Positions 27,248 to 56,877 of a stretch of DNA of 64,000 nt are shown piece after piece; the stretch's first letter is position 1; each line of letters begins with the position of its first letter. The notes beneath the pieces were generated by a model that had not been told where the DNA came from, did not search any database, and saw only the letters and a program-made list of their open reading frames with translations. The position numbers were made by a program, and so were the translations under genes. The DNA lies in the NCBI RefSeq assembly GCF_964213995.1, contig NC_135821.1:77562001-77626000 (forward strand). Reading direction: 5' to 3'. The stretch comes from Mustelus asterias. Lineage: Eukaryota.

Positions 27248-27772
27248 TTCAGGGTTTTAGATATCTGGACCATTGGGATCTCTTCCGGGGCAGGTGGGAC
27301 CTGTACAAGAAGGACAGGTTGCATTTAAACTGGAAGGGCATAAATATTCTGGCCGGGAGGTTTGCTAGTGTCACACAGCAGGATTTAAACTAGTTTGGCA
27401 GGGGGGTGGGAATCAAAGCAAAGGTGAATTAACTGAAGGGGAACTAGAGAGTAGGGCCAGTCAGACTCGGAGAAAGAGCAAGCAGGGTGTGGTTGCTGAT
27501 CAAAGAGGGTCTGGTGGACTGAAGTGCATTTATTTCAATGCAAGAAGTGTAACAGGTAAAGCAGATGAACTTACAGCTTGGAACTATGATGTTGTTGCTA
27601 TTACAGGGACTTGGTTATGGGAAGGAGGTGGTATTGGGGTTCTTGAGAAACATTAAGGTAGCCAAGTCCCCAGGGTCTGATGGGATATACCCCAGAATAC
27701 TGAGAGGGGCAAGAGAGGAAATTGCTGGGGCCTTGAGAAATCTTTGTATCCTCACTGGCTACAAGGGAGGTC

Positions 27773-27926
27773 ATGATGTGGAGATGCCGGCGTTGGACTA
27801 GAGTAAACACAGTAAGAAGTTTAACAACACCAGGTTACCTGAAGAAGGGCCTTGGGGCTCCGAAAGCTTGTGTGGCTTTTGCTACCAAATAAACCTGTTG
27901 GACTTTACTGGTGTTGTTAAACTTCT
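27773..27926. mobile_element. Young PLE-terminus fold-back insertion with a 13-bp TSD
   Basis: TSD taca[a/g]gggaggtc at 27760-27772 and 27927-27939; inversion junction caggt-t-acctg at about 27831-27841. Confidence 0.9.
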
Positions 27927-28091
27927 TACAGGGGAGGTCCCAGAGGATTGGAGGTTGTTCCTTTGTTTAAGAAGGGTAGCAAGGATAATCCAGATAAATA
28001 CAGGCTGGTGAGCCTTATGTCAATGGTAGGGAAATTATTGGAGCGGATTCTTCGAGACAGGATTTACTCCCACGTGGAAATAACCGGAAGT

Positions 28092-28447
28092 CATAGAATC
28101 ATAGAAATCATAGAAACCCTACAGTGCAGAAAGAGGCCATTTTGGCCCATCGAGTCTGCACCGACCACAATCCCACCCAGGCCCTACCCCCATATCCCTA
28201 CATATTTACCCGCTAATCCCTCTAACCTACGCATTTCAGGACCCTAAGGGGCAATTTTTAGCATGGCCAATCAACCGAACCCGCACATCTTTGGACTGTG
28301 GGAGCACCAGAGCACCTGGAGAAAACCCACGCAGACACGAGGAGAATGTGCAAACTCCACACAGACAGTGACCCAAGCCGGGAATCGAACCCAGGTCCCT
28401 GGAGCTGTGAAGCAGCAGTGCTAACCACTGTGCTACCGTGCCGCCCT
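28092..28447 (-). mobile_element. HE1-type V-SINE, full length, young
   Basis: Near-identical reverse complement of 63252-63596; (TTCTATGA)n-type tail; about 40 bp of host CR1 is missing at the site compared with 61890-61970. Confidence 0.92.
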
Positions 28448-29676
28448 CACTAACTTGATTGAGTTTTTCGAGGAAGTGACAAAGATGATTGATGAGGGTA
28501 GGGCAGTGGATGTTGTCTACATGGACTTCAGTAAGATCTTTGACAAGGCAGACTGGTGCAGAAGGTGAAGTCGCATGGGATCAGAGGTGAGCTGGCAAGG
28601 TGGATACAGAACAGGCTCGGTCATAGAAGACAGAGCGTAGCAGTGGAAGGGTGCATTTCTGAATGGAGGGCTGTGACAAGTGGCGTTCCTCAAGGATCAG
28701 TGCTGGGACCTTTGCTAAAAATGATTTGGAGGAAAATGTAACTGGCTTGATTAGTAAGTTTGTGGATGACACAAACATTGGTGGATTTGTGGATAGCGAT
28801 GAGGGCCATCAGAGGATACAGCAGGATATAGATCAGTTGGAGACTTGGACAGAGGGATGGCAGATGGAGTTTAATCTGGACAAATGTGAGATAATGCATT
28901 TTGGAAGGTCTAATACAGATAGGAAATATACAGTAAATGGCAGAACCCTTACGAGTTTTGATAGGCAGAGGGATCAGGGTGTACAGGTACACAAGTCACT
29001 GAAAGTGGCAACACAAATGGAGAAGTTAGTCAAGGTGGCATACGGCATGCTTGCCTTCATCGGCCAAGGCATTGAGTTTAAAAATTGGCAAGTCATGTTG
29101 CAGCTTTATAGAACCTTAGTTAGGCCGCACTTGGAATATAGTGTTTAATTCTGGTTGCCACACTACCAGATGGATGTGGAGGCTTTGGAGAAGGTACAGA
29201 AAAGATTTACCAGGATGTTGCCTGGTATGGAGGGCATTAGCTATGAGGAGAGTTTGGAGAAACTTGGTTTGTTCTCACTGGAACGACGGAGGTCGAGGGG
29301 CAACCTGACAGAAGTCTACCAGATTATGAGGGGCATGGACGAATGGACAGTCAGAAGCTTTTTCCCAGGGTGGAAGAGTCAATTACTAGGTGGCACAGGT
29401 TTAAGGTGCGAGGGGCAAGGTTTAAAGGAGATGTACGAGGCAAGTTTTTTGTTTTACACAGAGGGTGGCGGGTGCCTGGAACTCACAGCTGGGGGAGGTA
29501 GTGGAAGCAGATACAGTAGTGACTTTTAAGGGGCGTCTTGACAAATACATGAATAGGATGGGAATAGAGGGATGTGGTTCCCGGAACGGTAGGGGGTTTT
29601 AGTTCAGTCGGGCTGCATGATCGGTGCAGACTTGGAGGGCTGAAGGGCCTGTTCCTGTGCTGTAATTTTCTTTGTG

Positions 29677-29752
29677 ACTCATGCCAGGAATCGAACCCGG
29701 ATCCCTGGTGCTGTGAAACAACAGTGTTAACCACTGTGCCACCATGCCGCCC
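29677..29752 (-). mobile_element. V-SINE tRNA-like head fragment
   Basis: Reverse strand gggcggcatggtggcacagtggttaacactgttg...gggttcgattcc. Confidence 0.75.
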
Positions 29753-30364
29753 AAACTTGCAATGTCATGACACTATTTACTATGGGAAAAGTTAATAGGA
29801 AAAAAAGTAATTGCAAAATATTGTTCTGAAATAAGAATAAAATATCAGTTCAGATTTTTATTTTGTGCTGGGAAATCCAGACACCAATTGATCATTCCTA
29901 GGCCCATTAATTTCTTACCTCCCCATCAATGTTTCCTTCCACCCAGGTTTCATCTTGGGATCTTTCAATGTGTTTAAGACAGTAGTATTTAAATACAAGT
30001 TGTTTTTGTTGCATTAGCTAATCACCAGTTCTTGATTTATCCCATCATCTGTTGCTCTCAACTTGGTGTAATGTAGTGTGGACCCCTAACCCTTCAATTA
30101 CATTACTCAACAAAATATACCCAAGGCAAGGGAAATATGGCATCTGCTGCAGGATGCAAGGAAACCATAAGATGATTAATTTGAATAGAGTGAAGTTCCC
30201 ATTCATAAACCAAATCAAGTTTTAACACTTTCTCTTTGGGTGAGCAAAATGCTGAACCATGTAACAGAAGGCATGGACATTTTTCAACACTTTAATTGAC
30301 AACTGAATACCACAAGTGGGACCATTTTCACTGAGAAATCAGCCCGCAGTGGAGTCAGCTGGCA

Positions 30365-30700
30365 TAGGAAGATTTCACAGGAGAGTGACCAGATAAAACT
30401 TAGCACTGAGCCACAAAAAGCAACATTAGGACCAAAACAGGTATGTTTTAAGGAGCACCATAAAGGAGGGAAGCGAGGTAGAGAGGTGGAGAGGCTTAGA
30501 GACGAAATTCCAGACCTTGGAGTCTCAGTGGCTGAAAGTGCAAGGGTCCCTGACGGAAACATTGCAGTGTAGGGGAGGCCAGAATTGCAGGGATCGATGC
30601 TCTTGTTGGGTTATAGGACTGAAGGAGGTTACACAGATAGGGAAGCCCCCTCCCATGGAAGTATATTAAAATGAGGATGAGAATTTTGAAATCGAGCCAC
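30365..30700 (-). mobile_element. L2 LINE 3' fragment
   Basis: Reverse-complement match to 17150-17400 (aaattccagacc, gctgaaag, ccagaattg). Confidence 0.65.
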
Positions 30701-33700: not shown

Positions 33701-33814
33701 CAGACATAATGAACAGTCTCAGATCATGCAACATGGCATGGGTCAATCCTTGACATCCTGGTCAGATTGCATCTGAGAGTGTAGAAACCACAATGTGCTG
33801 ACCTCAGAAGATAA

Positions 33815-33970
33815 ATGCAAAAATCTTACAGTCGCGCTGATGGCACACCCCTGCCATGGGTTTCCCAGTGGTGAACGGTGTGTTCAATAGGAAATCCCGT
33901 TGACAATAAAGTCCCGTTACCAACAACACTCGGCCTCCTGCCGCAGAGAGGGAGAAAAATCCTGCCCATA
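33815..33970. mobile_element. MITE-like element
   Basis: Ends gagaaaaatcctgccca, the reverse complement of the gggcaggatt terminus at 5887. Confidence 0.45.
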
Positions 33971-35350: not shown

Positions 35351-37131
35351 AGGTCACCGAAAAACCAGAAAATGATGATGACAAAGAGACGAACAGCAAA
35401 GACATATTACACACCCAATCTCGTGGAAAACAAGGTGTCATCGCACCATCCAAAGTGTTTGCTAAGATTCAAATTATCTGCCCTAAGTTAGTTGTTGGTT
35501 ACTCATTATTAGCCAAGATTGACACGGGGCAAGTGACAACATACTAGCCCTGCAAATTCTAAAAGACATGAATCCACAGATGTGGAAAGCCATGGCAAAA
35601 CCTACTACTGCACAATTTTCAGCTTACAATGATTCACTAATTCCATATATTCCTGGAGTGCAAATATAAACAATCCTCCTGGGTATCACAGATGTTCCAT
35701 GTCATCGAGACTAAAGGCCCAGCAATTGTAGGTCTACCAGTATGCCGTGAACTCATACTAGCGATAATCCAAGGAATTCGTAAGACCTCATATAGCATAT
35801 CCCACCATATTATGATGTAAAATACACCAACTGTTCATAAGGGATTGTGCAAACACATTGTGGGTTCACTTATTAATTCTAGGCCCATGTGAACACATAT
35901 GGAGAGAAAGCTTGAGGACTTCAGAACTGCAGGGTTGAGTCTGCTGTGTTCTGTTACAGCCAGAAGTGAAACGAAGGCTGGATCATATGACACACTTCCC
36001 TTAAAGTGATGTCATGCTGCTATCCCTTAAAGACATATTACAACCACTACCTGTAATCTCCTCCAATTCTCACACCATCCTGACATGGAACTATATCGCC
36101 ATTGTTTCACTGTTGGTGGGTCAAAATCCTGGAACCTACTTGCTAACGACACTGTGGGTGTTCCTAAAATACATGGACGGCAGTGGTTCAAGAAGGCAGC
36201 ATATCAACTCCTGAAGGGTAATTAGGGATGGATGGGTAATGAATGCCGGCCTAGCCAGTTATGCCCACATCCCTTGAATTTAAAAAATGCCACTTTGATG
36301 CAGTAGCAAATGACTTAGTTTTTTGAAAGCCGAATCACTGAACCTCTTACCACTTTGGACATTACAATATTCTTTCATGGGACTCATCTCCTGAAAGAAT
36401 TCTAAAAATTTGGTTCAATTCATATCTGATTAATTGATGGTTCTGTGATTACTCTTCAAGTGGCTCAATAGTATACATCATCTATGAGTCATCTGTATTT
36501 TCTGAGTGGAATGTCTGTGGAATCAGTTTTAATAATATTATGTAACATTTTTGTCAAACGTTATTTGAGAAACAAAGTAACAGTGAATAACAGAATATTG
36601 TAATTTCACAGAGGTCTTGTGTCTGAATCAAGTACAGATTGATTAACATCCCTTTGTCTGCTAGCTAAAGGCTCCTAAGTACTCTGAGGTTGTGTAGTCC
36701 AAACCCAATCCTTAATAAATAGAAACTTACAGCAGGAAAATTGCTAATAACTCGCTACAATTTGGCAATTTTACTTTTGAAAGAAAAGACAAGTATTTGA
36801 TATGGGAAGTGAAAGGTCACACTAATACAATAGGGGGGGGCTCCTAGGTGGGGAATTCAGAAAGAGAAAGCATGAAATAAGCAAAGCTATTTAAGCCTAT
36901 TATGCCGTGGTTTCTTCAACAGATGATATGCAATCTTTGTTACATTGGATGAGGTCCAAACCATCTAAATTGCTTGAGAGATTTAAAATACATTGTTGGA
37001 TAGTGGAGTGGGAACTTCATCTGCTTACAGATCTACAATGCACAATGTAGGTAGGTTTAATGCTATAAACAAGAATGTATCTGACCCACAGCACAAGTAG
37101 ATGCCTGAAATATAACAAATGACATAAAATT

Positions 37132-37711
37132 TGCTGCAGGAAAGAATGCCCTGAGGCGTGGTACGTCGACGAGACCATGCAGACGCTTGGACAGCGGATG
37201 AACGGACACCACGCAACAATCACCACGCAACAATCACCAGGCAGGAGTGTTCTCTTCCTATCGGGGAACACTTCAGCAGTCAAGGGCATTCAGCCTCTGA
37301 TCTTCGGGTAAGCGTTCTCCAAGGCAGCCTTCAAGACGCATGATAACTCAGAATCGCCGAGCAGAAACTGATAGCCAGGTTCCGCACGCGTGAGGAGGGC
37401 CGCAACCAGGATCTTGGGTTGCAAAATCCTACTAACTGTCCTGGCTTGAGATAATTCACACCTCTTTAACCTGTGATCATCCCTCTCTCCACTCGCATTG
37501 TCTGTACTTGTAAAGACTCATATTATAACCATTATCTTGCAATTGCATCTCTGTCTATATATGCCATGTTTGTGAACATAACTCTCCACTCACCTGAGGT
37601 AGGAGCAGCGCTCCGAAAGTTCATGATTCCAAATAAACCTATTGGACTTTAACCTGGTGTTGTGAGACTATTTACTGTGCCCACCCCAGTCCAACGTCAG
37701 CATCTCCACAT
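37132..37711 (+). mobile_element. Penelope-like element (older subfamily), 5'-truncated: decayed GIY-YIG C-terminal half plus pLTR/tail
   Basis: CPEAWYVDET, CSLPIGEHFS; TSD cataaaatt at 37123-37131 and 37712-37720; hammerhead-like ctgaggta...gaaag at 37594-37625. Confidence 0.9.
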
Positions 37712-40700
37712 CATAAAATTCAGGGGTCACCAAAATCTCAAGGTTCACACAATGTGACTAATCATTGAAACTACACTCTCTACTTCTAACTTTATTTGAA
37801 CATTGGAATCATGTCCAATTAGCCCCGTACTATTACCATGTGTATAACTGCGAGATTAACAGTCTGTCCATGCCTCTTTAAAGCAAACTGCCACATGACC
37901 ACAATGCCATGAGATACAAACTTTGAACAATGCAACTAGCATCCTGAATAGAACCTCCTTCCCCAAAAATAACTGGTGGGATCATTTAATTGTGAGAAAT
38001 CCCATTTAGAATGGTAAAAAGACAATGGTAACATGATTGAAATAATAAATGAAATGTTAACAACCATTCTCTAACTACTGCTACACAGTTCAGTTCTGGA
38101 ATATTTGGATACAGACATCTGAATTTTTACATGTGCTTAAAATTATTTTCTTTCCTTTTATTTTTTGATAGAAAGTACATATGTCGATCAAGGATGTAAA
38201 TTGTGGACAATCTCATGGATTCTCAGCAATATTATTAAGTCACTGTTGGACAAAGAGTCAAGGTACCTGTTGAGTATACCCTACTAGAAGCTAATGGTAT
38301 CCTAAGATATACCTTTTTCTTAAAAAAGAAAACCCATCTGGAACAATTTATAACTTGAATTTTGTTTTTAATGGATAATGTGAACTTCTTATGAGATACT
38401 CCATCCTTCCCTATTCCTTTATCTATACAAACATAACACAACTGTTTCAACGACAGATGGTAGTAGTTGTTTTTGGCCAATGGCCTTCCAAATGATTCAA
38501 CACTAAGCTTTGGAGTCACAGTATGCTGAAACTAGTCCTTGCATTTACAATTGGCTGGGGAGGTGCAAATGTGATTCTGCTTAAACCAAGTAAAGCCATT
38601 TTAGCTTAACACAAGAAACATTAGAGGTCCTGGAAGTGAAGAGGCCATTCAGCCCATCAAACCCCTGCATCAAGCACCTTACATCTCCTATTATAACACT
38701 CAGCTACGTTTTGAATGTTGCATACATTCTTTCCAATATACTGAATTTAAATTTATTTTTGACTAATTTATGGGTATTGCAAGAGAGTGAAACCAGGTCA
38801 GAACCACTTCTGAACATGTTGCAAAATACACCAACCACTTTGCAACATTTGCCCAATATGTCATTATGACTCAGGCAACACTTAATATATTTATGACCCC
38901 ATTTGTGGAGGTATGCTACATGAAATACCCAATTTAAACTACTTTTTTCTCATTGTAACCTTCTTTCTCGATAGCTGCCAGGATGCAATAATAAACGAGA
39001 CATCACAGAACATCACAAAATATTGTAATGGAGGCACACCTGAGGCTATCATGAACTTGCAACCAATGCAAGACTGAAATGTGACACTGAAACTCAGCAC
39101 CTTTGTGCCCCTTTTGTGGAACTGCCCAACTGCAGGCCATTTTGAAAAGGATAACAGGCCACCATAAAAGAGCAAGCCTCTTCCAAAACTCTAAAATACA
39201 GACCTGAACACAAAGCCAGACTGCTACTTCAAAAGCTTTTAACAACCCTCTGGATTACTTTAGAAGCATTGGTAAAATAAATCCTATGAATTCTGATGTC
39301 TTGTAGAAATGAAACTGCAAGGTTATCTATGTGGAATTTTGTTTTAACCATTGGAATGTTTTGAAGATTATACTGTTAATTAAATATGTCCTTATAAGAG
39401 CCAACAAAACCCAGGAAGAGTACACAGGGAAATCACCACATCTTGAAGTTGAGCCACTTATCCTTGCTTGTCTGTCTGTTTGTTTTATGAAATGCAGCAT
39501 GTACCAACATACATATTGAATATTATTCATGCCTCTCATTGTCAATGCTCACTGGCAAGCTGAGGCTTAGGTTCACAGGACTCTGAAAATTTAGCTCAAA
39601 GGCTGAATATTTCAACAAGGTTAATTTCACTTAAGTTCAGACACTAGTTATCAAGATTGTTTATTCTACCCCAACCACCGCCCCCAACCTCCAGAAAAAT
39701 AATGGTGCTCTCTAGAATTTGCTTGTGCAGTTTCAAAACTTACGACTGCCAGGTAAAGACTTCAACAATTATGCTGCTCACAATAGATTGCTTAATGTCA
39801 GGAAAAACTTCAAGTTGAATACCTGAGAAACAATTTAATAAATATATAGCAAATCAGTATGGAAAACTTGAATTAGTCATTTTTAGCAGAAAAGCTTATG
39901 ATTTATTGTCAAGCTCTTTCCTCCATATGGAAAGCGTGACACAACCAGCTGCAGTAGCATGGACTGAAGCAATATTGTACAAGACCGAGTAAACTTGCCT
40001 GGACTGAACAGCACATTTTATAAGACGTCACTATAAATTAAAGAAGAACATGGTATGTAGAACCACTTTGTTAACACCCAAGCTTTAAATATAAACAGAG
40101 CACGCATTTCAGAAACCCTCCCCACCTCAAGGACCAGGTTTTTTGGCTTATGGTCTGCAGGAAATTCCTAATGATCTTCATCATGTGTTCAGAAAAAAAA
40201 TCTTTCCTGCCAAGACTACCCTAAAGGACATATGTTGAACATTCTGCACACATTGTATGCTTGCAATCCTTCTGCCTTTCTCAAAAATCCTGTGTCCTCT
40301 GTCCACATCACCCATGTTAGAGAAACTGAGTCCACCGCTGAAGGGCTAAACATGATCGCAAATGGCCATCTCTCAGCAGTTATTATTTTTGTCCAATAAG
40401 CCTTTACATTTTTTATTACACCAGGTTGTTGTTTAACGACATGAATTTCTTCCATATTTGCTGGTTTTCCCTGGCTAAAAGCCAGCCTGCTAGGCTGTCA
40501 GCTTCCTGCTGTGTCTGAATCACGTGGCAGTGAGTGCAACCTAGTAACACCCAAAGTACTTGCTGCTCGATGCTGTTCAGTCATTAGAGACTAACAATTC
40601 TTTTGAATGCTCAGCAATACACAGCACTTGGTGTTCTTCCACTGTGGACAGATGTGAAATGTTCCAACACAACGGTTCCTTAAGAATTTAGATTTGTATG

Positions 40701-41982
40701 CAGCCACATTCAGCAAATTAAAAACAAACCGTCACCATTGCGGCTTCTTTAGAGACACAAAATCTGATTGATCCCAGCCAGAAATAGATGTGCTCCACCC
40801 ACATCAGCACCCCACCCCCTTCACAAATGGTACATAGTTAATTTAAAATGTTCCAAGTCAATCTACTAAAAATCCCATGCACGAAACAAAAGATCGCATC
40901 ACCGGGAGCACTGTGTGCTTGTTCACACAGCTTCAATTCTGCTCTTTGTTACTGCCTAATTCTTTCAAGGCTATTGTGCTACAGGCAACAGTTGCTGCCT
41001 AGTACCTAGTTTGATAATTTGTGTGCGAGACTAGACAGGAAGTATTGACATGGAGGGTGGTAGGGGAAGGGGGGAAGGATGGGGAAAACGGCATCACAGC
41101 TGAATCTGATCATGCTGTCAACCAGCACACACACACACTTTGCAGGTGGGGACACTGGATGGCATTTAGGAGCAGAAACCTTGACTGATTTTCCCCTCGA
41201 CAATGAGGCTAAGTTTCCCACTCCAACAATTGCACTGCCTGAAAGCAGCTCACTCGGTCAGTACAGCTCGGAAATTAAATTTCAAACCTTCTTGGTCATT
41301 ATGGCTCAGCTCCAGACTAGACTATTTATTAACTGAGCTATTGGAGGAAGCTTGCTTGTGTATTGCATACACATGTATATATTATATTATAAAAGCAAAT
41401 GTATTATTGGGCCAAAATTGCTTATTTTTCCAGAACTTCTGCTACCAAAAAATAAACACGTTTAATTTTTGCATGTCAGATATTGATGAGGTTGACAAAA
41501 TGTAAATTACATTTTTGATATTAGTCAAATTAAGGGTTTTACATAACTCAAACCACTGGATATCCAAGGGGCCGGGGGAAATGTCATGATATGTAATTAA
41601 AAGATTCTGACCCATAGTGAAAACTGCAAAGGACAAATCTCATGTAATTTATGAACATCTGCAGGACCAAGTGGCTAAATTGCCATTTCTAATACTTTAC
41701 TTTATGAAATACATGTGAAATGTTGCTGAAAAGAACATTTATAAAAATCTATTGTTGTCACTTCCCTCAGAGGTCAATGGTAACATTACAACAGTACAAC
41801 AAACTGATTAATCCCTCATTAAATACATACTGTGGTGCAGCAACTAGAACACCGCTGTATAATTGGTGACAATGCTGGTCGTCATAATTCTTGAAAACAT
41901 TCAATATTAGAAACTAGCATCCTATTAGGCATCATTCTGATTATACATTAACCAACCTGTCATTCATGGAGAATATTTTAAA

Positions 41983-42508
41983 CACAGTAAGAAGTTTAAC
42001 AACACCAGGTTAAAGTCCAACAGGTTTATTTGGTAGCAAAAGCCACACAAGCTTTCGGAGCTCTAAGCCCCTTCTTCAGGTGAGTGGGAATTCTGTTCAC
42101 AAACAGAGCTTATAAAGACACAGACTCAATTTACATGAATAATGGTTGGAATGCGAATACTTACAACTAATCAAGTCTTTAAGAAACAAAACAATGTGAG
42201 TGGAGAGAGCATCAAGACAGGCTAAAAAGATGTGTATTGTCTCCAGGCAAGACAGCCAGTGAAACTCTGCAGGTCCACGCAACTGTGGGAGTTACAAGTA
42301 GTGTGACATGAACCCAATATCCCGGTTGAGGCCGTCCTCGTGTGTGCGGAACTTGGCTATCAGTTTCTGCTCAGCGACTCTGCGCTGTCGTGTGTCGCGA
42401 AGGCCGCCTTGGAGAACGCTTACCCGAATATCAGAGGCCGAATGCTCGTGACCGCTGAAGTGCTCCCCAACAGGAAGAGAACAGTCTTGCCTGGTGATTG
42501 TCGAGCGG
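41983..42508 (-). mobile_element. Young Penelope-like element, 5'-truncated
   Basis: RSTITRQDCSLPVGEHF...VAEQKLIAKFRTHEDGLN; nearly identical to the arms at 46466-47734; probable TSD tttaaa at 41977-41982 and 42509-42514. Confidence 0.92.
42043..42088 (-). ncRNA. Minimal type I hammerhead ribozyme motif in the PLE pLTR
   Basis: Minus strand CAC-CUGAAGA-A-GGGGC-uuaga-GCUCC-GAAA-G-CUU/GUG. Confidence 0.75.
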
Positions 42509-44053
42509 TTTAAAAACATGGCCACAATATCTAAAGACCAGATTGTTAAGATGACCATTCTGTTCTCCATCCAAACTAGTCTGCTGTCAGTGATCACAGG
42601 ATAGTCTATCTCAGGTGGCCCTGTATTCATACAGCCTCAGAACTTTATCAGCAATAGATTGGACAGCAACAAGCACTAATGCAGCATGCAAAGTTCACTG
42701 CTTTATTTTCCTTTTAATATTGATGAACTGAAATTTCAATTTTTTACAAAGGCAATTAATTGAAGGCGGAACTACAAACTTAATATTTGAAAAAAATCTA
42801 CAAAATTTAATGGTATAGACATTTTCTTACTCCATCATTTTTCGCAACTTTTCTTTTGAAACTAATTTTCTTCAATTCAGTCCCCTTCTGCTTCCCACCT
42901 CCCCCCGCCCCCCCCCCCCCCCCCCCCCAACCCAAGTCACCACTATTTCTTCTTCCCTAAACAGTAGAAGCAGTTAGCTATCCATTACAGTGCTGGAATG
43001 TAGTAAACTGCACAATGATTCCAACACAAGGTTTCCATTACCACCAGCATGGTAAACAGAACAGCCAGGAAAATAAAACCACCTGGTTCTGTTCAGGGAG
43101 AGCTCAGAATATCCTGACTCTGTGCACCAAGACAGCCTTCAGAAAGCACAGACCGATAAAGCCAAAAAACATGTTACTGCTTCCAACAAATGGAGTTTCA
43201 TTTGTTTTATAGTTCACTTTGACAGATCACAGCATCTGTTTTGCTAGTGGAAACATTTTTTAAAAAGCAAATGGAACGTAGATTAATTAAGAATGTGAAT
43301 GAATAAATATACATTGTCCTCTTGCTCCACATTACAACTACTTTGCTTTAAAAGACTAAAGCTTAGTGGCATATTATCATAGCAACGAAACATGCTGCAT
43401 TAAACATTTTTCCGCAGCAGGATTAACTTGATTTCAACCAGATCCACCTATAGATTTGAATTAGTTTGAAACGCATGAGTTTTTTAAAAAAAGGAACCAA
43501 TCTTCCAAGCTGCAATGCCCACATTTATTGCAAGACAAGTAAATCATTTCTTCCTATATAGATGTAGTTAGTAAAGTAACGATTATAAAGTCTCCTCTCA
43601 CTCCAAGCTGTGAGAACATATTGAAGTTGCTGCATCAAAGTCAATTTGAGGAATGCAGAGTTTGCATATTCATGTCACTGACCATCAAGCTGTCAATGAT
43701 GGAATCAAAGCCTGGAGACAAAGATCACAAGTTGGTCTGCATTGCAGCTGTAGGGTAAGTTTGCACTTTGAGTGGAAAAGTCCAAAACTGCAGAAATAAG
43801 AATTTAAACTGCAGTTACCTTCTATGTAGTATTTAAAGAATCAGTGAAATAACCTACAGCACCTACCACCAAAAGCCAGGTCCTTGCGAGAAAAAGTCAC
43901 AGGTTACTTTGAAAGCATAAGGAGTGGCTGGTCTTATTAATGTTGAAGGTAACAAGCTGGAGGAGGCTGACCTGCACTGTGGCCCAAACAGTTTTTCATC
44001 TCAGAGTGAATAAACATATCATGCACTCCACACAGTAACAATCCACTCAAAGG

Positions 44054-45217: not shown

Positions 45218-45402
45218 GTCTAAAGATATGCAGGTTCGGTGGCTTGGCCATGCTAAATTGCTCCTTAGGTGTCCCACGGTTTGTAGTTTAGGGATAAATA
45301 CATGGGGTTACGTGGATACCTGGGTGGGATGCTCTGTTGGAGAGTTGGTGTGGACTTGATGGGCTGAATGGCCGCCTTCTGCATTGTAGGGATTCTATGA
45401 AG
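45218..45402 (+). mobile_element. V-SINE 3' part
   Basis: cagtctaaagatatgcaggttcggtggcttggccatgctaaattg...gtagggattctatga. Confidence 0.8.
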
Positions 45403-46525
45403 AAAAGGCTACCAAACAAAGAACAAAGAACAATACAGCACAGGAACAGGCCCTTCGGCCCTCCAAGCCTGCGCCGCTCATGTGCCCACTAGACCATTCT
45501 TTTGTATCCCTCTATTCCCAGTCTGTTCATGTGGCTATCTAGATAAGTCTTAAACGATCCCAGCATGTCCGCCGCAATCACCTTGCTTGGCAGTGCATTC
45601 CAGGCCCCCACCACCCTCTGTGTAAAATACATCCCCCTGACATCTGTGTTGCCCCCCTCACCTTGAACCCGTGACCCCTTGTGTTCGTCACCTCCGACGT
45701 GGGAAAAAGCTTCCCACTGTTCACCCTATCTATGCTCTTCATTATTTTATACACCTCTATTAGGTCGCCCCTCATCCTCCGTCTTTCCAGTGAGAACAAC
45801 CCCAGTTTACCCAATCTCTCCTCATAGCGAAGACCCTCCATACCAGGCAACACCCTGGTGAACCTCCTCTGTACTATCTCCAAAGCCTCCACGTCCTTCT
45901 GGTAGTGTGGCAACCAGAACTGGATGCAGTATTCCAAATGTGGCCTAACCATCGTACTATACAGCTGCAACATCATATGCCAACTTTTATATTCCATGCC
46001 CCGTCCAATAAAGGCAAGCATGCCATATGCCTTCTTGACCACCCTCTCCACCTGTGCTGCCACTTTTAAGGATCTGTGGACTTGTACCCCCAGGTCCCTC
46101 TGTGTGTCTATACTCCTGATGGTTCTGCCATTTATTGCATAGCTCCCCCCTTACATTAGATCTACCGAAATGCATCACTTCGCATTTATCTGGATTAAAT
46201 TCCTTCTGCCATTTCTCCGCCCAATGTTCCAGCCTATGTATATCCTGCTGTATTCTCTGACAACGTTCATCACTATCCGCAACTCCAGCAATCTTCGTGT
46301 CGTCCGCAAACTTACTGATCACACCAGTTACATCTTCCTCCAAATCATTTATAAATATCACAAACAGCAGAGGTCCCAGTACAGAGCCCTGCGGAACACC
46401 ACTAGTCACAGACCTCCAACTGGAAAAAGACCCCTCCACTGCTACCCTCTGTCTTCTATGGCTAACACAGTAAGAAGCTTAACAACACCAGGTTAAAGTC
46501 CAACAGGTTTATTTGGTAGCAAAAG

Positions 46526-46571
46526 CCACACAAGCTTTCGGAGCTCTAAGCCCCTTCTTCAGGTGAGTGGG
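46526..46571 (-). ncRNA. Minimal hammerhead ribozyme motif (left arm)
   Basis: Same motif as 42043-42088. Confidence 0.75.
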
Positions 46572-46774
46572 AATTCTGTTCACAAACAGAGCTTATAAAG
46601 ACACAGACTCAATTTACATGAATAATGGTTGGAATGCGAATACTTACAACTAATCAAGTCTTTAAGAAACAAAACAATGGGAGTGGAGAGAGCATCAAGA
46701 CAGGCTAAAAAGATGTGTATTGTCTCCAGGCAAGACAGCCAGTGAAACTCTGCAGGTCCACGCAACTGTGGGAG

Positions 46775-47092
46775 TTACAAGTAGTGTGACATGAACCCAA
46801 TATCCCGGTTGAGGCCGTCCTCATGTGTGCGGAACTTGGCTATCAGTTTCTGCTCAGCGACTCTGCGCTGTCGTGTGTCGCGAAGGCCGCCTTGGAGAAC
46901 GCTTACCCGAATATCAGAGGCCGAATGCCCGTGACCGCTGAAGTGCTCCCCAACAGGAAGAGAACAGTCTTGCCTGGTGATTGTCGAGCGGTGTTCATTC
47001 ATCCGTTGTCGCAGCGTCTGCATAGTTTCCCCAATGTACCATGCCTCGGGACATCCTTTCTTGCAGCGTATCAGGTAGACAACGTTGGCCGA
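46775..47092 (-). pseudogene. PLE GIY-YIG endonuclease domain (C-terminus of the PLE ORF; RT absent)
   Basis: SANVVY.IRC...C....YIGET...LRQRMNEH...HF...E...GLN: GIY-YIG motif with CCHH residues; the S.NVVY form resembles Neptune-clade PLEs. Confidence 0.9.
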
Positions 47093-47591
47093 TACGCTGC
47101 AAGAAAGGATGTCCCGAGGCATGGTACATTGGGGAAACTATGCAGACGCTGCGACAACGGATGAATGAACACCGCTCGACAATCACCAGGCAAGACTGTT
47201 CTCTTCCTGTTGGGGAGCACTTCAGCGGTCACGGGCATTCGGCCTCTGATATTCGGGTAAGCGTTCTCCAAGGCGGCCTTCGCGACACACGACAGCGCAG
47301 AGTCGCTGAGCAGAAACTGATAGCCAAGTTCCGCACACACGAGGACGGCCTCAACCGGGATATTGGGTTCATGTCACACTACTTGTAACTCCCACAGTTG
47401 CGTGGACCTGCAGAGTTTCACTGGCTGTCTTGTCTGGAGACAATACACATCTTTTTAGCCTGTCTTGATGCTCTCTCCACTCCCATTGTTTTGTTTCTTA
47501 AAGACTTGATTAGTTGTAAGTATTCGCATTCCAACCATTATTCATGTAAATTGAGTCTGTGTCTTTATAAGCTCTGTTTGTGAACAGAATT

Positions 47592-47638
47592 CCCACTCAC
47601 CTGAAGAAGGGGCTTAGAGCTTCGAAAGCTTGTGTGGC
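47592..47638 (+). ncRNA. Minimal hammerhead ribozyme motif (right arm)
   Basis: CUGAAGA 47601-47607, stem II ggggc/gcuuc, GAAA 47624-47627, palindromic AAGCUU, predicted cut after 47631, GUG pairing with CAC 47598-47600. Confidence 0.75.
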
Positions 47639-48867
47639 TTTTGCTACCAAATAAACCTGTTGGACTTTAACCTGGTGTTGTTAAACTTCTTACTGTGTTT
47701 ACCCCAGTCCAACGCCGGCATCTCCACATCATGACTTCTATGGCTAAGCCAGTTCTCCACCCATCTAGCTAGCTCACCTTTTATCCCGTGAGATTTAACC
47801 TTTTGCACCAGCCTGCCCTTCGGCCCTCCAAGCCTGCGTCTCTTGTCAAACGCTTTACTAAAAACCATATAGACGACATCTATGGCCCTTCCCTCGTCAA
47901 TCGTTTTTGTCACCTCCTCAAAAAACTCAACCAAATTCGTGAGGCATGACTTCCCTCATACAAAATCATGCTGTCTATCGCTAATGAGATTATTCAGTTC
48001 TAAATGCGCATATATCCTATCTCTAAGAATCTTCAACAACTTCCCTACCACGGACGTCAAGCTCACCGACCTATAATTACCCGGGTTATCCTTGCTACCC
48101 TTCTTAAATAACGGGACCACTGGTCCTAAATTTACAAGTTCCTCTTTTCATCAAGTGATCAGCATATGCAATGATTTCCAAGTAGGGTAGTGAAGGTAAA
48201 ATTCCTAGAATTGTTTAAGAAGCAGTTGGATAAAGCAAAGAGATCTTTCTGGTTGGACAAAGGTAGAACGTTGATACAGTTACTGTTTACAAAATGTCAA
48301 CAAATCAGGAAAACTGGTCATTAAACAAAATGAATCAATTTTTCTCATGAGACATTAATCTCAAGGTTTTCTGGATTTTTGTATTCACTACATCTTAGAA
48401 GATGCCAGTATAAGTCAATAGCCTGTGATTTGATGACAAAGTTAAAAATCACCTGTCATTAACATTGAAAAATAATTTCTTCCTCATATTGTCTGATTTT
48501 AATCCAGTTGACAAAGTGGCCAACATTTTGTAAACTGGGTTAGTGAGCCAGGTCAGTACGTTATGGTCATGGTCATATTAACATATTTTAAAAATTTGTT
48601 ACAGATTTCTAAGTTCATGCAAGTGAAAAGCTACTCATGGGGATTGAGAACTAGCTTCAGTACCAAGCGCCCTCCAGTAAGAACTTTACTACAGCAGTAT
48701 AGAGTAAAGTGCACTATATTCTGCAGCAATTAACACCGTGCTTTAATTGTGCCTTTAAAGAGCAACTAAACAACAACTTGTATTTATATAGTGCCTTTAA
48801 TGTAATAAAATGTTCCAAGGTGCTTCACAGGCACATTATAAAACAAAATATGACAACAAGGCACTGA

Positions 48868-49866: not shown

Positions 49867-49867
49867 T

Positions 49868-50090
49868 CATAGGGCAATGTTAGACAGAAGACTATGAACT
49901 TGAACAAATAGGTGGGACTTAAAGAGTGTCTGAAAGAGGGAAAGAGAGGTTGAGAGGTTTAGGGAAGGAATTCCAGAGCTTAGCCCACAGGCAGCTGAAG
50001 ACAGGGCCACCAATTGTGGAGCAATTAAAATCAGGGATGGGCAGAATGCAGGAATTAGAAGAGGGCAAATACCTTGGAAAGTTGTGGGGG
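49868..50090 (-). mobile_element. L2 LINE 3' fragment
   Basis: GGPVFSCLWAKLWNSFPKPL; homologous to 17150-17350. Confidence 0.75.
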
Positions 50091-50854
50091 AGAACAAAGA
50101 ACAAAGAACAAAGAAAATGACAGCACAGGAACAGGCCCTTCGGCCCTCCAAGCCTGCACAGAACATGCTGCCCGACTTAACTAAAACTCCCTACCCTTCC
50201 GGGGACCATATCCCTCTATTCTCATCCTATTCATGTACTTGTCAAGATGCCCCTTAAAAGTCACTACCGTATCTGCTTCCACTACCTCCTCCGGTAACGA
50301 GTTCCAGGCACCCACCACTCTGTGTAAAAAATCTGCCTCGTACATTTCCTTTAAACCTTGCCCCTCACACCTTAAACCTATGCCCCCGAGTAATTGACTC
50401 TTCCACCCTGGGAAAAAGCTTCTGACTATCCACTCTGTCCATGTCTCTCATAATCTTGTAGACTTCTATCAGGTCGCCCCTCAACCTCCGTCGCTCCAGT
50501 GAGAACAAACCACGTTTCTCCAACCTCTCCTCATAGCTAATGCCCTCCATACCAGGTTACATCCTGGTAAATCTTTTCTGTACCCTCTCCAAAGCCTCGA
50601 CATCCTACTGGTAGTGTGGCGACCAGAATAAAACACTATATTCCAAGTGTAGCCGAACTAAGGTTCTTATAAAGCTGCAACATGACTTGCCAATTTTTAA
50701 ACTCAATGCCTCGGCCGATGAAGGCAAGCATGCCATTGTTCAACCGGAGCAAGGCAGAGAGGAGCGATTTGTAGCTGGAGTAAAAAGAGTAAGGGATTGA
50801 CTTTTTTTCCCTTACTTTTTCGTGGGGTTTCTTTTTTTTTTCCTAGTTTAAGTG

Positions 50855-51055
50855 AAAAGCGGAAGTAGGCCGGCCGCGGGATGACCTGGGAAGGAATTTT
50901 TTATTTTTTTTTTATAAGCGCGCGGGAGGTTTAAAAAGCAGGCCGCACTATCCAGCGGGCAACGTCGTTAGCGGGCAGCGAAGTGAGCAGGTAGCAGAGT
51001 GAGGGCTGAAGGGCTTTGGTTCAACGGGCTTAGGCGGAAACGGGCAAGGCAGGGT
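50855..51055 (+). promoter_or_regulatory. CpG-rich CR1 5' UTR, likely internal promoter
   Basis: Dense CpG in a CpG-poor window; ETS-like GCGGAAGT at 50859-50866. Confidence 0.45.
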
Positions 51056-51107
51056 AGGTTTAGTTCTTAGTTTTTAAAAACTTAAAAACAAAACCAATCA
51101 AATAAGG

Positions 51108-52046
51108 ATGGAGGGTCAGGTGATGTGTTGTTCCTGCATGATGTGGGAGCTGGTGGACCCCATTGTGGTTCCCAGTGAACATGTCTGCAGTAAGTGTTGG
51201 TTGCTTGAGGAACTCCGGCTCAGGGTTGATGAGCTGGATTCTGAGCTTCGGACACTGCGACACATCAGGGAGGGGGAGAGATACCTGGATGCTGTGTTTC
51301 AGGAGGCAGTCACACCCCTTAGACTAACTAACTTGAATTCAGTCAGTGGTCAGGGGCAAGAGGGTTTGGCTGCGAGTGAGGCAGGTAGTGGGATCCAGGA
51401 GGTAGAGTTCCAGGAGCCTCAGTCCCTGAACCTGTCCAACAGGTTCGAGATTCTTGTTCTGTGTGTGGACGGGAACGGGGAGTGCAGGGAGGATGAGCAA
51501 ACTGACCACAGCACCATGGTACAGGGAGCCGTTCAAGTGGGGGGAGAAAAAAGAAATGTAGTCGTAATTGGGGAGAGTATAGTTAGGGGCATTGACACTG
51601 TTCTCTGTGACCAGGATCGAGAATCCCGAAGATTGTGTTGCTTGCCTGGTGCTCGGGTCCAGGATATCTCATGTGGGCTGCAGAGGAACTTGGAGTGGGA
51701 GGGTAAAAATCCAGTTGTCGTGGTCCACGTAGGTACCAACGACATAGGTAGAACAGGAACAGAGGTTCTGCTACGGGAATATGAAAAGCTAGGAGCTAAA
51801 TTAAAAAGCAGAACCAAAAAGGTAATAATCTCTGGATTACTACCTGAGCCACGAGTGAATTGGTGCAGGGTCAATAAGATTAAGGAGGAAAATGCGTGGC
51901 TCAAAGATTGGTGTGGGAGGAATGGGTTTGAATTCATGGGACATTGGCACCAGTATTGGGGAAGAGGGGACCTGTTCCGATGGGATGGTATTCATCTGAA
52001 TCGTGCTGGGACCAGAGTCCTGGCGAATCATATAAGTCGGCTGTAG
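51108..52046 (+). CDS. CR1 ORF1p: Zn finger, leucine zipper and SGNH/GDSL esterase domain; open frame of 312 aa
   Basis: CxxC...CxxC (CCSC...CSKC); LEELRLRVDELDSELRTL; VIGESIVR (block I), HVGTNDI (block III), DGIH (block V). Confidence 0.9.
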   Translation: MEGQVMCCSCMMWELVDPIVVPSEHVCSKCWLLEELRLRVDELDSELRTLRHIREGERYLDAVFQEAVTPLRLTNLNSVSGQGQEGLAASEAGSGIQEVEFQEPQSLNLSNRFEILVLCVDGNGECREDEQTDHSTMVQGAVQVGGEKRNVVVIGESIVRGIDTVLCDQDRESRRLCCLPGARVQDISCGLQRNLEWEGKNPVVVVHVGTNDIGRTGTEVLLREYEKLGAKLKSRTKKVIISGLLPEPRVNWCRVNKIKEENAWLKDWCGRNGFEFMGHWHQYWGRGDLFRWDGIHLNRAGTRVLANHISRL

Positions 52047-52275
52047 ATAGGGCTTTAAACTAAATAGTGTGTGTTTGGGGGGGGGGGGGTTCAGTTGTAT
52101 GGAGAATTAGAAAATCAAAGGTAAAGGAGAGGGTAGGAATGCAGGTTAATGATGAGGACTTTCAACAAGTTAAAGGAGCCGAGGGCTCAGGAGAGGTTAG
52201 TAAAGTTTCCAGACCACGTAATAGAACAGAGTATAGAAGGTGGCAGGAATCTAGACCTCAGGCAGAGTAAAAAAG

Positions 52276-55234
52276 GTGACAAGCATGAGAAGGGAGGTGG
52301 TCAACACAGTGCAAGGAGATGGTCTGGGGAAGAATAACCAGTCTGTGACAGGAAGGGACGGAGCATGCAAACAAAGGAATGCACGTAGCATTCGAAACAA
52401 AGTGAATGAATTGACGGCACAAATCAGTGCAAATGGGTATGATCTAGTGGCCATTACAGAAACGTGGTTGCAGGGTGACCAGGACTGGGAACTAAATATC
52501 CAGGGGTATCAGACAATTCGGAAGGATAGACAGAAAGGAAAAGGAAGTGGGGTAGCTCTGTTAATTAAGGATATCAGGGCGGTAGTGAGAGATGATATAG
52601 GCTCTAAGGAGCAAAATGTGGAATCAATGTGGGTGGAGATAAGAAATAGTAACGGGAAAAAGTCACTGGCGAGCGTAGTCTATAGGCCCCCAAATAATAA
52701 CTTCAAGGTGGGGCGGGCTATAAACAAACAAATAACAGATGCATGTAAAAATGAAACAGCAATAATCATGGGGGATTTTAACCTCTATATTGATTGGTCA
52801 ACTCAAGTCGGACGCGGTGGACTTGAGGAAGTTCTTAGAATGCTGTTGCGATAGTTTCCTCGAACAGCATGTTCCAGAACCTACGAGGGAGCAAGCTATC
52901 TTGGATCTGGTCCTGTGTAATGAGACAGGTAAAATTAATAATCTCCTTGAGAGGGATCCTCTTGGAATGAGTGATCACAATATGGTTCAATTTCTAATAC
53001 AGATGGAGGGTGAGAAAGTAGGGTCCCAAACCAGTGTCCTCTGCTTGAACAAGGGGGATTACAATAGGATGAGGGCGGAGTTGGCTAATGTAGACTGGGA
53101 ACACAGACTAATTGGTGGAACAGTTGAGGAACAGTGGAGGATTTTTAAGGAGATTTTTCTCAGTACTCAGCAAAAATATATTCCAGTGAAAAAGGAGGAA
53201 TGTAAGAAAAGGGATAACCAGCCATGGATAACTAAGGAAATAAAGGAGAGTATCAAATTAAAGACCAATGCATACAGAGAGGCCAAAATTAGTGGGGAAC
53301 TAGAAGATTGGGAAGGCTTTAAAAAACAATAAAGAACTACTAAGAAAGCAATAAAGGAAAGATAGATTATGAAAGTAAACTAGCACAAAATATAAAAACT
53401 GATAGTAAAAGTTTTTACAAATATATAAAACGGAAAAGAGTGGCTAAAGTAAATGTTGGTCCCTTAGATGATGAGAAGGGGGATTTAATAATAGGAAACG
53501 AGGAAATGGCCGAGGCCTTAAACAAGCTTTTTGTGTCAGTCTTCACAGTGGAGGACACAAATAGCATACCAATAATTGACGGTCATGGGACTGTCGGGGG
53601 TGAGGACCTTAAAACGATCACTATTACTAAAGAGGTAGTGCTGGGTAGGCTAATGGGACTAAAGGTAGACAAGTCCCCTGGTCCAGATGGAATGCATCCC
53701 AGGGTACTAAAAGAAACGGCAGAAGCAATAACAAATGCATTAGTTGTAATTTATCAAAATTCACTGGACTCTGGGGAGGTCACAGTAAGAAGTTTAACAA
53801 CACCAGGTTAAAGTCCAACAGGTTTATTTGGTAGCAAAAGCCACACTGGGGAGGTGCCAGCTGATTGGAAAACAGCTAATGTAACACCACTGTTTAAAAA
53901 AGGAGGTAGACAAAAGGCAGGTAACTACAGGCCGGTTAGCTTAACATCCGTAGTTGGAAAAATGCTGGAATCTATCATTAAGGAAGAAATAGCAGGACAC
54001 CTGGAAAAGAATGGTTCAATCAAGCAGACGCAGCATGGATTCATGAAGGGATAGTCGTGTTTGACTAATTTACTGGAATTTTTTGAGGATATAACGAATG
54101 CGGTTGACAGAGGGGAACCGATGGATGTGGTGTATTTAGATTTCCAGAAGTCATTCGATAAGGTGCCTCACAAAAGGTTGCTGCATAAGACAAAGGTACA
54201 CCGAGTTGGGGGTAAAGTGTTAGCGTGGATTGATGATTGGCTATCTAACAGAAAGCAGAGAGTTGGAATAAATGGGTGCTTTTCCGGTTGGCAATCAGTG
54301 ACTAGTGGCATGCCGCAGGAATCAGTGCTGGGGCCTCAACTATTTACCATATACATAGACGATCTGGAGGAGGGAGCCGAGTGTAGGGTAAAAAAGTTTA
54401 CGGATGGCACAAAGATGAGTGGGAAAGCAAATTGCGTGGAGGACACAGAGTCTGCAGAGAGATTTGGATAGGCTAAGTGAGTGGGAAAGGATCTGGCAGA
54501 TGGAGTGTAACGTTGGTAAGTGTGAGGTTATCCACTTTGGAAGGAATAATAATAAAATGGACTATTATTTAAATGGTGAAAAATTACAACATGCTACTGT
54601 GCAGAGGGACCTGGGGATCCTTGTGCATGAATCGCAAAAACTCAGTTTGCAGGTGCAGCAGGTAATCAAGAAGGCAAATGGACTGTTGGCCTTTATCGAG
54701 AGAGGGATGGAGTATAAAAGCAGGGAGGTTATGCTGCAACTGTACAGGGTACTGGTGAGGCCGCACCTGGAATACTGTGTACAATTTTGGTCCCCTTATT
54801 TAAGAAAGGATATATTAGCTTTGGAGGGGGTACAGAGAAGGTTCACCAGGTTGATTCCGGAGATGAGGGGATTTGCTTATGAGGAGAGATTGAGTAGACT
54901 GGGCCTGTACTCATTGGAGTTTAGAAGGTTGAGGGGAGATCTTATAGAGACATATAAGATAATGAAGGGGCTCGACAGGGTAGAAGCAGCAAGGTTATTT
55001 CCACTTACAATGGAAACAAGAACTAGGGGGCATAGCCTCAAAATACGGGGGAGTCAATTGAGAACAGAGTTGAGGAGGAACTTCTTCTCCCAGAGGGTAG
55101 TGAATCTTTGGAATTCTCTGCCCAATGAAGCAGTAGAGGCTACCTCGTTAAATGTGTTTAAGTCACAGATAGATAGATTTTTAACCATTAAGGGAATTAA
55201 GGGTTATGGGGAGTGGGCGGGTAAGTGGAACTGA
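52276..55234 (+). pseudogene. CR1 ORF2 (APE endonuclease plus RT), disrupted by frameshifts, stops and a 65-bp PLE insert
   Basis: NARS, AITETWL, YRPP, GDFN, LDLVL, SDH; KSPGPDG, NYRPVSL, DFQKSFD, FTDG (mutated FADD). Confidence 0.92.
53781..53845 (-). mobile_element. 65-bp young PLE-tail insertion with a 10-bp TSD
   Basis: TSD ctggggaggt at 53771-53780 and 53846-53855. Confidence 0.92.
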
Positions 55235-55775
55235 ACCCACACTCAGATCAGCCACGGTCTATTTGAATGGCGGAGCAGGCTTGAGGGGCTAGATGGCCTA
55301 CTCCTGCTCCTATTTCTTATGTCCTTATGCCGTATGCCTTCTTGACTACCTTCTCCACCTGCATTTCCACTTTCAGTGACCTGTGTACCTGTACACCCAG
55401 ATCCCTCTGCCTATCAATACTCTTAAGGGTTCTGCCATTTACTGTATATTTCCTATCTGCATTAGACCTTCCAAAATGCATTACCTCACATTTGTCCGGA
55501 TTAAAACTCCATCTGCCATCTCTCCGCCCAAGTCTCCAACTGATCTATATCCTGCTGTATCCTCTGATGGTCCTCATCGCTATCCGCAAATCCACCAACC
55601 TTTGTGTCGTCCGCAAACTTGCTAATCAATCCAGTTACATTTTCCTCCAAATCATTTATATATATATTACAAACAGCAAAGGTCCCAGCACTGATCCCTG
55701 AGGAACACCACTTGTCACAGCCCTCCATTCAGAAACACACCCTTCCACTGCTACCTTCTGTCTTCTTTGACCAAG

Positions 55776-55944
55776 ATGTGGAGATGCTGGCATTGGCCTG
55801 GGGTAAACACAGTAAGAAGTTTAACAACACCAGGTTAAAGTCCAACAGATTTATTTGGTAGCAAAAGCCACCTTTTGCTACCAAAGTGGCTTTTGCTACC
55901 AAATAAACCTGTTGGACTTTAACCTGGTGTTGTTAAACTTCTTA
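55776..55944. mobile_element. Young PLE-terminus fold-back insertion with a 13-14-bp TSD
   Basis: TSD cttctttgaccaa(g) at 55762-55775 and 55945-55958; arms invert at gccac/gtggc with a duplicated cttttgctaccaaa filler. Confidence 0.92.
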
Positions 55945-56694
55945 CTTCTTTGACCAAGCCAGTTTTCTATCCACCTTGCTAGCTCACCTCTGATCCCATG
56001 CAACTTCATCTTCTGCACCAGTCTGCCACGATGCCACTTCCTATCAGAAGTGGCATCAAGCAAGGATGTGTGTGTTTGCACCCACTCTTTTCTCCAATTT
56101 CCAAGTGGTCATCCCCAACATGTTAATCCAAAAAGGATCAGGTCTATGTTTTAAGGAATTCTTTCCTTTTATTTCCTACCCCATAGAGTTTGCACCCTGA
56201 ATTCGCACCTCCCTCTATCACAGCTGTCAGTCATAAATCATTCTGCATATTATAAACATTGTAAAAAGGTAAATAATGCCTATTTTGGTAATAATTCCAC
56301 ATATTTAAACATATGGTCTAAAATATGCTTTAAAAATGGCTTTAACTTTCACTTGTGCAACATCGTGATTGCAAAGATTTTTGTAGGAAACATAAGATTT
56401 TGTTGCTATATACATCATGGCCTGTCACTCAATTGGGGTGGCATGATATGGATGCAAGTTGAACGCAGTCACTAGTATATCTCTACTGACTGTACGTCCA
56501 CATCATGCTCCAGTGATTAACAGTTCTCAGCACTAATATCGCCACAAATCTTGGATAACTACAGAAACAAGGAGAATGTTACACCTCTTTGTTTACTGTT
56601 AAATGTTATTAAATTATTTAATTTTTATTTGTTCGAACTGCGAGAAATGGTATTTCCTAACTCCGTCAAAGCTGCCTCTGGGTCAGCAATGTGA

Positions 56695-56761
56695 TGATGT
56701 GGAGATGCCGGCGTTGGACTGGGGTAAACACAGTAAGAAGTTTAACAACACCAGGTTATGA
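56695..56761 (-). mobile_element. 67-bp young PLE-tail insertion in unique DNA, 11-bp TSD
   Basis: TSD cagcaatgtga at 56684-56694 and 56762-56772. Confidence 0.92.
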
Positions 56762-56877
56762 CAGCAATGTGAGCCAATGGAACAATTAGTTTATCATCTG
56801 TGTGTCTGGCTGTACTTGGAAAATGTATTTAGGCAGTGGGTAATCAATCTATTTTCATCTGTAGTGACAATGAAGAG

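Follow-up and report, generated by a model that had tools for sequence, protein, structure and literature searches.

A two-sided, spaced target motif for a young Penelope-like element in Mustelus asterias

We analyzed a 64,000-nt stretch of the Mustelus asterias genome (NCBI RefSeq assembly GCF_964213995.1, contig NC_135821.1, positions 77,562,001 to 77,626,000; hereafter the window) containing six inserts from a single young family within the Penelope-like elements (PLEs), and followed this family through the 3.68 Gb of genome searched. The family inserts at a short two-sided target, (C)TG-N16/17-CA(G), the two halves of which are inverted with respect to each other and flank the core that becomes the target-site duplication (TSD). 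This target rule is real and genome-wide for the family and for a sister family whose 3' sequence differs, these being the two families of this genome in which it was examined.

Target sites in the window and in the genome

The original prediction had proposed that the six window inserts occupy a fixed palindrome, TG[G/T]-N14-[C/A]CA. All six inserts, their TSDs and the rebuilt empty sites were located where it had placed them, and each site reads TG, 2 nt, a 12-nt core, 2 nt and CA (Table 1). The core copy is complete at 46466 and at 55776; at 27773 it carries one mismatch, and at 56695, 53781 and 41983 only part of the core is duplicated, at the 5'-truncated junction. The six sites represent four distinct contexts, as had been described: 27773 and 53781 occupy homologous positions of CR1 long interspersed nuclear elements (LINEs), 46466 and 55776 do likewise, and the other two lie in unique DNA. 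An empty homologous CR1 site for 27773 is present in the window at about 61727-61756. The TSD at 41983, previously singled out as the shortest and least certain, consists of 6 nt of core and the site was not scored as motif-positive by our TSD caller; the element 3' end nevertheless abuts the core exactly and in register.

Further loci were fetched with element-only queries, a few hundred being sampled from tens of thousands of copies, and the sample is biased to the start of one contig and to copies long enough to include the endonuclease (EN). With the exclusion of 26 stretches that reached a locus end, 189 distinct complete inserts were found. A caller blind to the motif, which accepted TSDs of 10-20 bp, called a TSD in 146 of these and made 9 calls when applied to 400 swapped flanks. 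The motif counts cover the 146 TSD-bearing inserts, which reduce to 112 non-homologous sites once homologous targets are collapsed. A motif was scored if centered on the TSD within 2 nt, and the background was taken from 20,000 control positions.

TG-N16-CA was found at 66 of the 112 sites (2.3% of controls) and TG-N17-CA at 28 (2.8% of controls), so that one or the other form was present at 94/112 compared to 5.05% of controls; an N18 spacing occurred at a single site, which is background. The TSD-centered comparison with controls, made on sampled copies, thus gave the enrichment that had been anticipated for the TG and CA halves, but it was strongest at TG-N16/17-CA rather than at the narrow N14 motif. 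The full predicted motif was present at only 24/112 sites (0.64% of controls), its K and M positions were weak (42/66 and 40/66), and in place of a fixed spacer, TG and CA are separated by 16 or 17 nt. Among 164 half-sites, 71% have C and 3% have G at the position outside the TG, and the cores are A/T-rich (64% versus 56% in the flanks). TSD lengths peaked at 12-13 bp, with 53 of the 146 being 12 bp, 39 being 13 bp and 18 being 14 bp. Loci fetched after the rule had been stated served as a held-out test, and here the N16, N17 and N18 forms were found at 17, 9 and 0 of 31 sites. For the sister family, 35 inserts were found, and the 30 with a TSD carried the N16 form in 13 cases and the N17 form in 6. 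The element ends cannot supply TG and CA, which sit in flanking DNA and are separated from element sequence by 12 nt or more.

As a second approach, we counted CA dinucleotides beyond 3016 genome-wide junctions, a junction being defined as the untailed end plus one non-template base. CA was found 272 times at distance 9, 1096 times at 12, 473 times at 13, 803 times at 14 and 251 times at 15, where the counted range ends; background CA is 7.4%, and distances 9 and 15 serve as near-background points. These counts are inflated by a CR1 hot spot at 12 and 14, and at 12 also by a tail variant. The peak lies at 12-14 instead of 14-15 because microhomology of 1-2 nt shifts the apparent end of the element, and the same shift to 12-14 is present in the sampled loci. 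The genome-wide counts agree with the rule derived from the sampled loci but are blunter.

Two CR1 positions account for 21 and 5 of the 146 sites, and the target rule accounts for repeated insertion at the same CR1 positions. Since four of the six window sites are also found there, the motif could be taken for an artefact of a few CR1 hot spots, of the copying of already filled CR1s, or of TSD calling. Inserts at the commoner hot spot range from 175 to 2169 nt, and the hot-spot inserts vary in length, orientation and host CR1 sequence, which indicates separate events. For the insert at 56695, an empty allele was identified in single contigs from two other organisms, which omit 56684-56761, exactly the insert and one TSD. 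This diversity, the empty allele, the persistence of the motif after homologous targets were collapsed and the low rate of false TSD calls refute the artefact reading, to which we assign a negligible probability. Further recurrent target positions, a third CR1 site and short interspersed nuclear element (SINE)-like repeats, were also noted.

Several observations weigh against the rule as a complete description of target choice. No motif was present at 18/112 sites, and in a tighter register 14/112 sites retained one half-site and 8/112 none. Spacings N13, N14 and N15 were somewhat raised (11, 12 and 11 of 112 sites; controls 2.5-2.8%), and the 43 of 189 complete inserts for which no TSD was called fall outside the motif counts. 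The older sister-family copy at 23279-23449 of the window has a TSD of 14-15 bp and no flanking TG/CA. In addition, the ranking of hot spots among CR1 positions is not fully explained by the motif. By position-weight scores, which were trained on motif-positive sites, are therefore partly circular, and were used only for this ranking, the commonest hot spot ranked only 5th and 2nd in two empty CR1 copies, and at most one insertion was found at a CR1 position with a higher score.

Nick positions, insert anatomy and priming

The commonest arrangement, TG-NN-[12 bp]-NN-CA, was found at 31 of the 66 N16 sites, and the N17 sites peaked at a 13-bp TSD. When nicks were set 2 nt inside TG and CA, zero extra bases remained at 198 of 214 junctions from 107 motif-positive inverted inserts. 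Each nick is thus located 2 nt 5' of CA(G), and the nicks lie 12-13 nt apart, leaving 3' overhangs of 12-13 nt; both the TSD peak and the junctions give this distance rather than the 13-14 nt first proposed. The earlier view of a motif-targeted PLE with inverted half-sites and with both strands nicked in register is borne out by the site and junction counts. Among single-arm inserts without a TSD, CA was found 12-15 nt past the 3' junction in 26/36, compared to 28.9% of controls. The far half-site is therefore present even where the TSD did not survive, the window site at 41983 included.

The junctions also bear on whether the element RNA selects the target. Both reverse transcription (RT) start regions contain a TG, and by an RNA-guided or microhomology model this TG and two further bases would pair in register with the target half-site. 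Short matches are indeed enriched: the first core base matched the next template base in 61/100 cases versus 33 expected and in 61/98 versus 37 expected, and 2-nt primer-template matches numbered 31 versus 7 expected. The template register, however, spreads from -5 to +14, with few junctions in register. No excess of matches was seen for the base next to the nick on its half-site side (32 versus 27.6 and 25 versus 23.9), and the TG is located on the side of the nick that does not prime. The fact that the nick is fixed while the template register varies indicates that the target sets the nick and that the RNA afterwards finds 1-2 nt of pairing. In-register RNA pairing was rejected from the register spread, and target choice by the RNA appears very improbable.

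Head-to-head inversions with the element 3' end at both borders made up 128 of the 189 inserts. In 127 of these 128, one arm was tailed and the other untailed, as was the case for 33/35 in the sister family, and this pairing indicates priming from both nicks, at the two known RT start sites. Half-site conservation was about equal whichever arm the adjacent nick primes (n = 94). The arms ended no more than 15 nt apart in 45/127 inserts (permutation mean 5.8, maximum 16 in 5000). That inversions arise solely by fold-back of the tailed cDNA was rejected, as either arm can be the longer one: the untailed arm extended further 5' in 44/127 and the tailed arm in 38/127. The anatomy fits two cDNAs that start from two nicks and two RT starts, often on the same RNA, and are later joined. 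The ATG of the open reading frame (ORF) in a tandem downstream copy is also the position of the distal RT start site, and the tail lies directly upstream of this ATG. For the anole element PAc, by comparison, RT is described as starting 111-118 nt inside the ORF (PMC11167929; for all papers cited by accession, our statements refer to the passages covered).

The element and its protein

The genome contains 34,571 exact matches to a 30-mer from the element 3' end and 80,537 to a 26-mer of the sister family. Arms longer than 150 nt showed a median identity of 98% to the references (n = 470). All eight of the fetched full-length candidates contain an intact ORF after a pseudo-long terminal repeat (pLTR), encoding 893 aa in seven and 883 aa in one, the 893-aa variant carrying about 60 nt extra at the ORF end. 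Open frames of at least 899 aa, free of stops, were found in each of the 51 scored genome matches. The element had been described as young, and the arm identity and intact ORFs uphold this; judged by these sequences, the family is probably still active.

Among protein relatives, the nearest come from sharks (81-94% identity, partial matches), with those from turtles at about 43%. The reverse transcriptase is telomerase-related: RVT_1 was found in 53/53 aligned relatives, and the best fold matches were TERTs (3du5_A, E = 8.5e-10; 6zdp_A, Z = 16.9, with the model of a near-full-length copy, pLDDT 92.4). Residues 763-859 of the model match the GIY-YIG catalytic domain of I-TevI (1ln0_A; Z = 10.7, rmsd 1.9, 91 residues aligned). 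PF01541 matches 41/53 relatives at E<=0.05, but not the protein of this element itself. The GIY-YIG CCHH residues C788, C792, H828 and H834 are nearly invariant, as are C745, C750 and C753 of a CX4CxxC linker that precedes the EN; the form CX2-5CxxC is found in 51/53 aligned proteins. The pLTR contains the core letters and stem II of a hammerhead. By comparison with passages of PMC4209133, this core is a putative hammerhead ribozyme; an Rfam search of one locus gave no match at E<=1.

With pLTRs, direct or inverted, partial tandems and a tail of 30-40 bp, the element is an EN+ PLE with a single ORF combining a TERT-like reverse transcriptase and a GIY-YIG domain. By the criterion of PMC8557442, its linker sequence marks it as predicted Neptune/Nematis-type, these two clades being kept together here, and not as Penelope/Poseidon. 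The resemblance to the Neptune/Nematis elements of that paper extends to the single ORF, the TERT-like reverse transcriptase, the C-terminal GIY-YIG domain with its CCHH residues, the CX2-5CxxC linker, the pLTRs, the inverted 5'-truncated copies and the tail at one end. The linker-bearing clades are described as favoring (TA)n with a variable nick distance (PMC8557442), whereas in the present family the distance is tied to the half-sites. Microsatellites were not a common target here: a dinucleotide repeat was found in the 20-nt flanks of 1/189 inserts and at 1/146 empty sites versus 0.77% of controls.

Table 1. Target sites, inserts and element features, in window positions
Feature	Position	Strand	Details
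Site 1, CR1 LINE	27756-27942	.	TG 27756-27757, core 27760-27771, CA 27941-27942
Site 1 insert	27772-27926		inverted, tailed arm left; core copy 27927-27938, 1 mismatch
Site 2, unique DNA	41967-42518	-	TG 41967-41968, core 41971-41982, CA 42517-42518
Site 2 insert	41983-42508		single-arm, 5'-truncated; just 6 nt of core repeated, 42509-42514
Site 3, CR1 LINE, commonest hot spot	46450-47751	.	TG 46450-46451, core 46454-46465, CA 47750-47751
Site 3 insert	46466-47735		inverted, tailed arm right; arms 609 nt, 99% complementary; core copy 47736-47747
C-terminal GIY-YIG endonuclease, ORF 3' end	47092-47388	+	inverted copy (-) at about 46775-47072
Minimal hammerhead-like core in pLTR	47600-47630	+	CUGAAGA, stem, GAAA; read from sequence
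PLE tail	47694-47735	+	between proximal and distal RT start sites
Site 4, CR1 LINE, homologous to site 1	53765-53859	-	TG 53765-53766, core 53769-53780, CA 53858-53859
Site 4 insert	53781-53845		65 nt, single arm; 10 nt of core repeated
Site 5, CR1 LINE, homologous to site 3	55759-55961	.	TG 55759-55760, core 55763-55774, CA 55960-55961
Site 5 insert	55775-55945		inverted; core copy 55946-55957
Site 6, unique DNA	56679-56776	-	TG 56679-56680, core 56683-56694, CA 56775-56776
Site 6 insert	56695-56761		single tailed arm; 11 nt of core repeated

Target recognition and relation to known systems

The target is very probably recognized by the element's own protein. Alternatively, TG and CA around an A/T-rich core could mark bendable or nucleosome-phased DNA, selected by indirect readout or by a host bias. 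TG/CA steps are flexible, the cores exceed their flanks in A/T content, and hot-spot strength is incompletely explained by the motif, all of which would be compatible with such a bias. The preference for C and avoidance of G outside the TG, the fixed 2-nt offset of the nick and the fall to background at N18 are sharper than would be expected from DNA shape alone, and we regard this explanation as quite improbable.

We consider it rather probable that this recognition is by endonuclease units of the element that bear on the two half-sites and nick each strand, the units being two EN domains of a dimer. The number of units is something we infer, and a single nuclease acting twice at a fixed reach would leave the same footprint. 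In that case one GIY-YIG domain would make a nick, priming would follow, and the domain would then nick the other strand at the same motif with a reach of 12-13 nt. This sequence of events predicts identical motif counts, and the strict tailed/untailed asymmetry indicates that the two priming events are non-equivalent, as fits an ordered pathway. Sequential nicking by a single catalytic domain is also known from GIY-YIG homing endonucleases (PMC3161791). The equal strength of the half-sites, the narrow stagger and the far half-site in single-arm inserts are nonetheless accounted for more simply by simultaneous recognition. Known monomeric GIY-YIG enzymes, moreover, cut only about 2 nt apart. 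Repeated use of one domain therefore seems to us unlikely.

If the dimer is taken as the working model, the GIY-YIG domain, perhaps with the CX4CxxC linker, would read the CA(G)/(C)TG pairs adjoining each nick, which falls at 5'-../NNCA(G)-3' (slash, nick) on either strand. The two EN domains of one dimeric ribonucleoprotein would be placed, from B-DNA geometry, about one helical turn apart on the same face of the DNA. Both nicks would be made before or early in cDNA synthesis. The inserts themselves show that both 3'-OH ends usually prime, the distal RT start giving the tailed arm and the proximal start the untailed arm, aided by 1-2 nt of primer-template pairing, and that the two cDNAs are joined head to head to give the inverted structure. 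The most specific form of this model, a dimeric retrotransposon of restriction-enzyme type in which two GIY-YIG domains jointly recognize the motif and make a concerted break with a 12-13-nt stagger and two RT domains extend both ends, using the two start sites of one and the same RNA, is one that we put forward tentatively as a possibility. The motif, nick positions, stagger and priming pattern are all read from genomic scars. Against the dimer model, the purified anole protein, of the Poseidon clade, favors ATT, with no such palindrome reported in the passages covered (PMC11167929). If correct, a concerted dimer would explain by one mechanism the fixed TSD and the inverted pLTRs of PLEs as well as their tail at one end and the arms that end together, and the PLE would be a natural two-ended, site-symmetric writer of RNA into DNA.

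The proposed mechanism has partial counterparts in other systems. GIY-YIG restriction and homing enzymes cut with a stagger of about 1-2 nt, at a compact site and with no coupling to reverse transcription, as against half-sites separated by 16-17 nt and cDNA priming from both ends in the present element. R2 and LINE-1, the latter by twin priming, use target-primed reverse transcription, and a second nick can prime a second cDNA to yield an inversion. The R2 target, however, is one long asymmetric site and the LINE-1 motif is one-sided, whereas the present element uses a short, symmetric target throughout the genome and has its 3' end on both arms. Among GIY-YIG nucleases, I-BmoI needs a base pair next to its nick, and Eco29kI and Hpy188I act as dimers on palindromes (PMC3161791); the present element resembles these enzymes and I-TevI in its nuclease fold and would share a base-pair requirement beside the nick and, with the restriction enzymes, dimeric cutting of a palindrome. 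An experimental parallel is PAc, a Poseidon element from Anolis carolinensis, the protein of which cuts and extends both strands from two RT starts that bound the tail and is predicted to be a dimer (PMC11167929). PAc differs from the present element in belonging to the Penelope/Poseidon clade, in being described as lacking the zinc motif of the linker, and in its ATT/AT-rich preference; in vitro its start sites show no strand preference, and neither a spaced palindrome nor a fixed stagger is reported in the passages covered (PMC11167929).

Targets described for PLEs include (TA)n, (CA)n, 28S ribosomal DNA, telomeres and an AT-rich/ATT preference (PMC8557442, PMC11167929). The initial assertion that PLEs are not generally sequence-specific was too broad in view of these targets; it holds in that our literature searches found no spaced palindromic PLE target, with older PLE papers (Pyatkov 2004, Evgen'ev and Arkhipova 2005, and Arkhipova 2006) and Repbase outside their coverage. 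Nor was such a target present in the passages covered of PMC3846280, PMC2377424, PMC12910113, PMC8969392 and 10.64898/2026.07.22.740005. The class of element is thus known, and its targeting geometry appears to be new. PLE integration is poorly understood: in PMC8557442 the distance of the second nick is described as variable, the tail as frequently one-sided, and the way in which inverted pLTRs and tail arise as unresolved, and the sole in vitro PLE system had no defined genomic target (PMC11167929). The present family provides nucleotide-exact nicks on both strands, a short defined substrate, tens of thousands of copies, many intact ORFs and a strict link of two nicks to two RT starts. Whether the protein acts as dimer or monomer, in which order it cleaves and how the tail arises become directly testable, and the family is also relevant to retroelement-based genome writing. 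None of 78 metagenome loci from distant relatives contained a usable insert complete with two ends and a TSD.

Other features of the window were noted in passing. The insert at 53781 is hosted by a near-complete LINE at 51078-55234, which we take to be of CR1 type from its translated motifs, with an ORF1 of 322 aa at 51078-52046 and a broken ORF2. Besides the older sister-family copy at 23279-23449, another is found at about 37130-37714. A 221-aa frame at 20924-21589 is presumably a remnant of a Gypsy-type LTR retrotransposon integrase, and a tandem array with a 43-bp period lies at 23604-23990.

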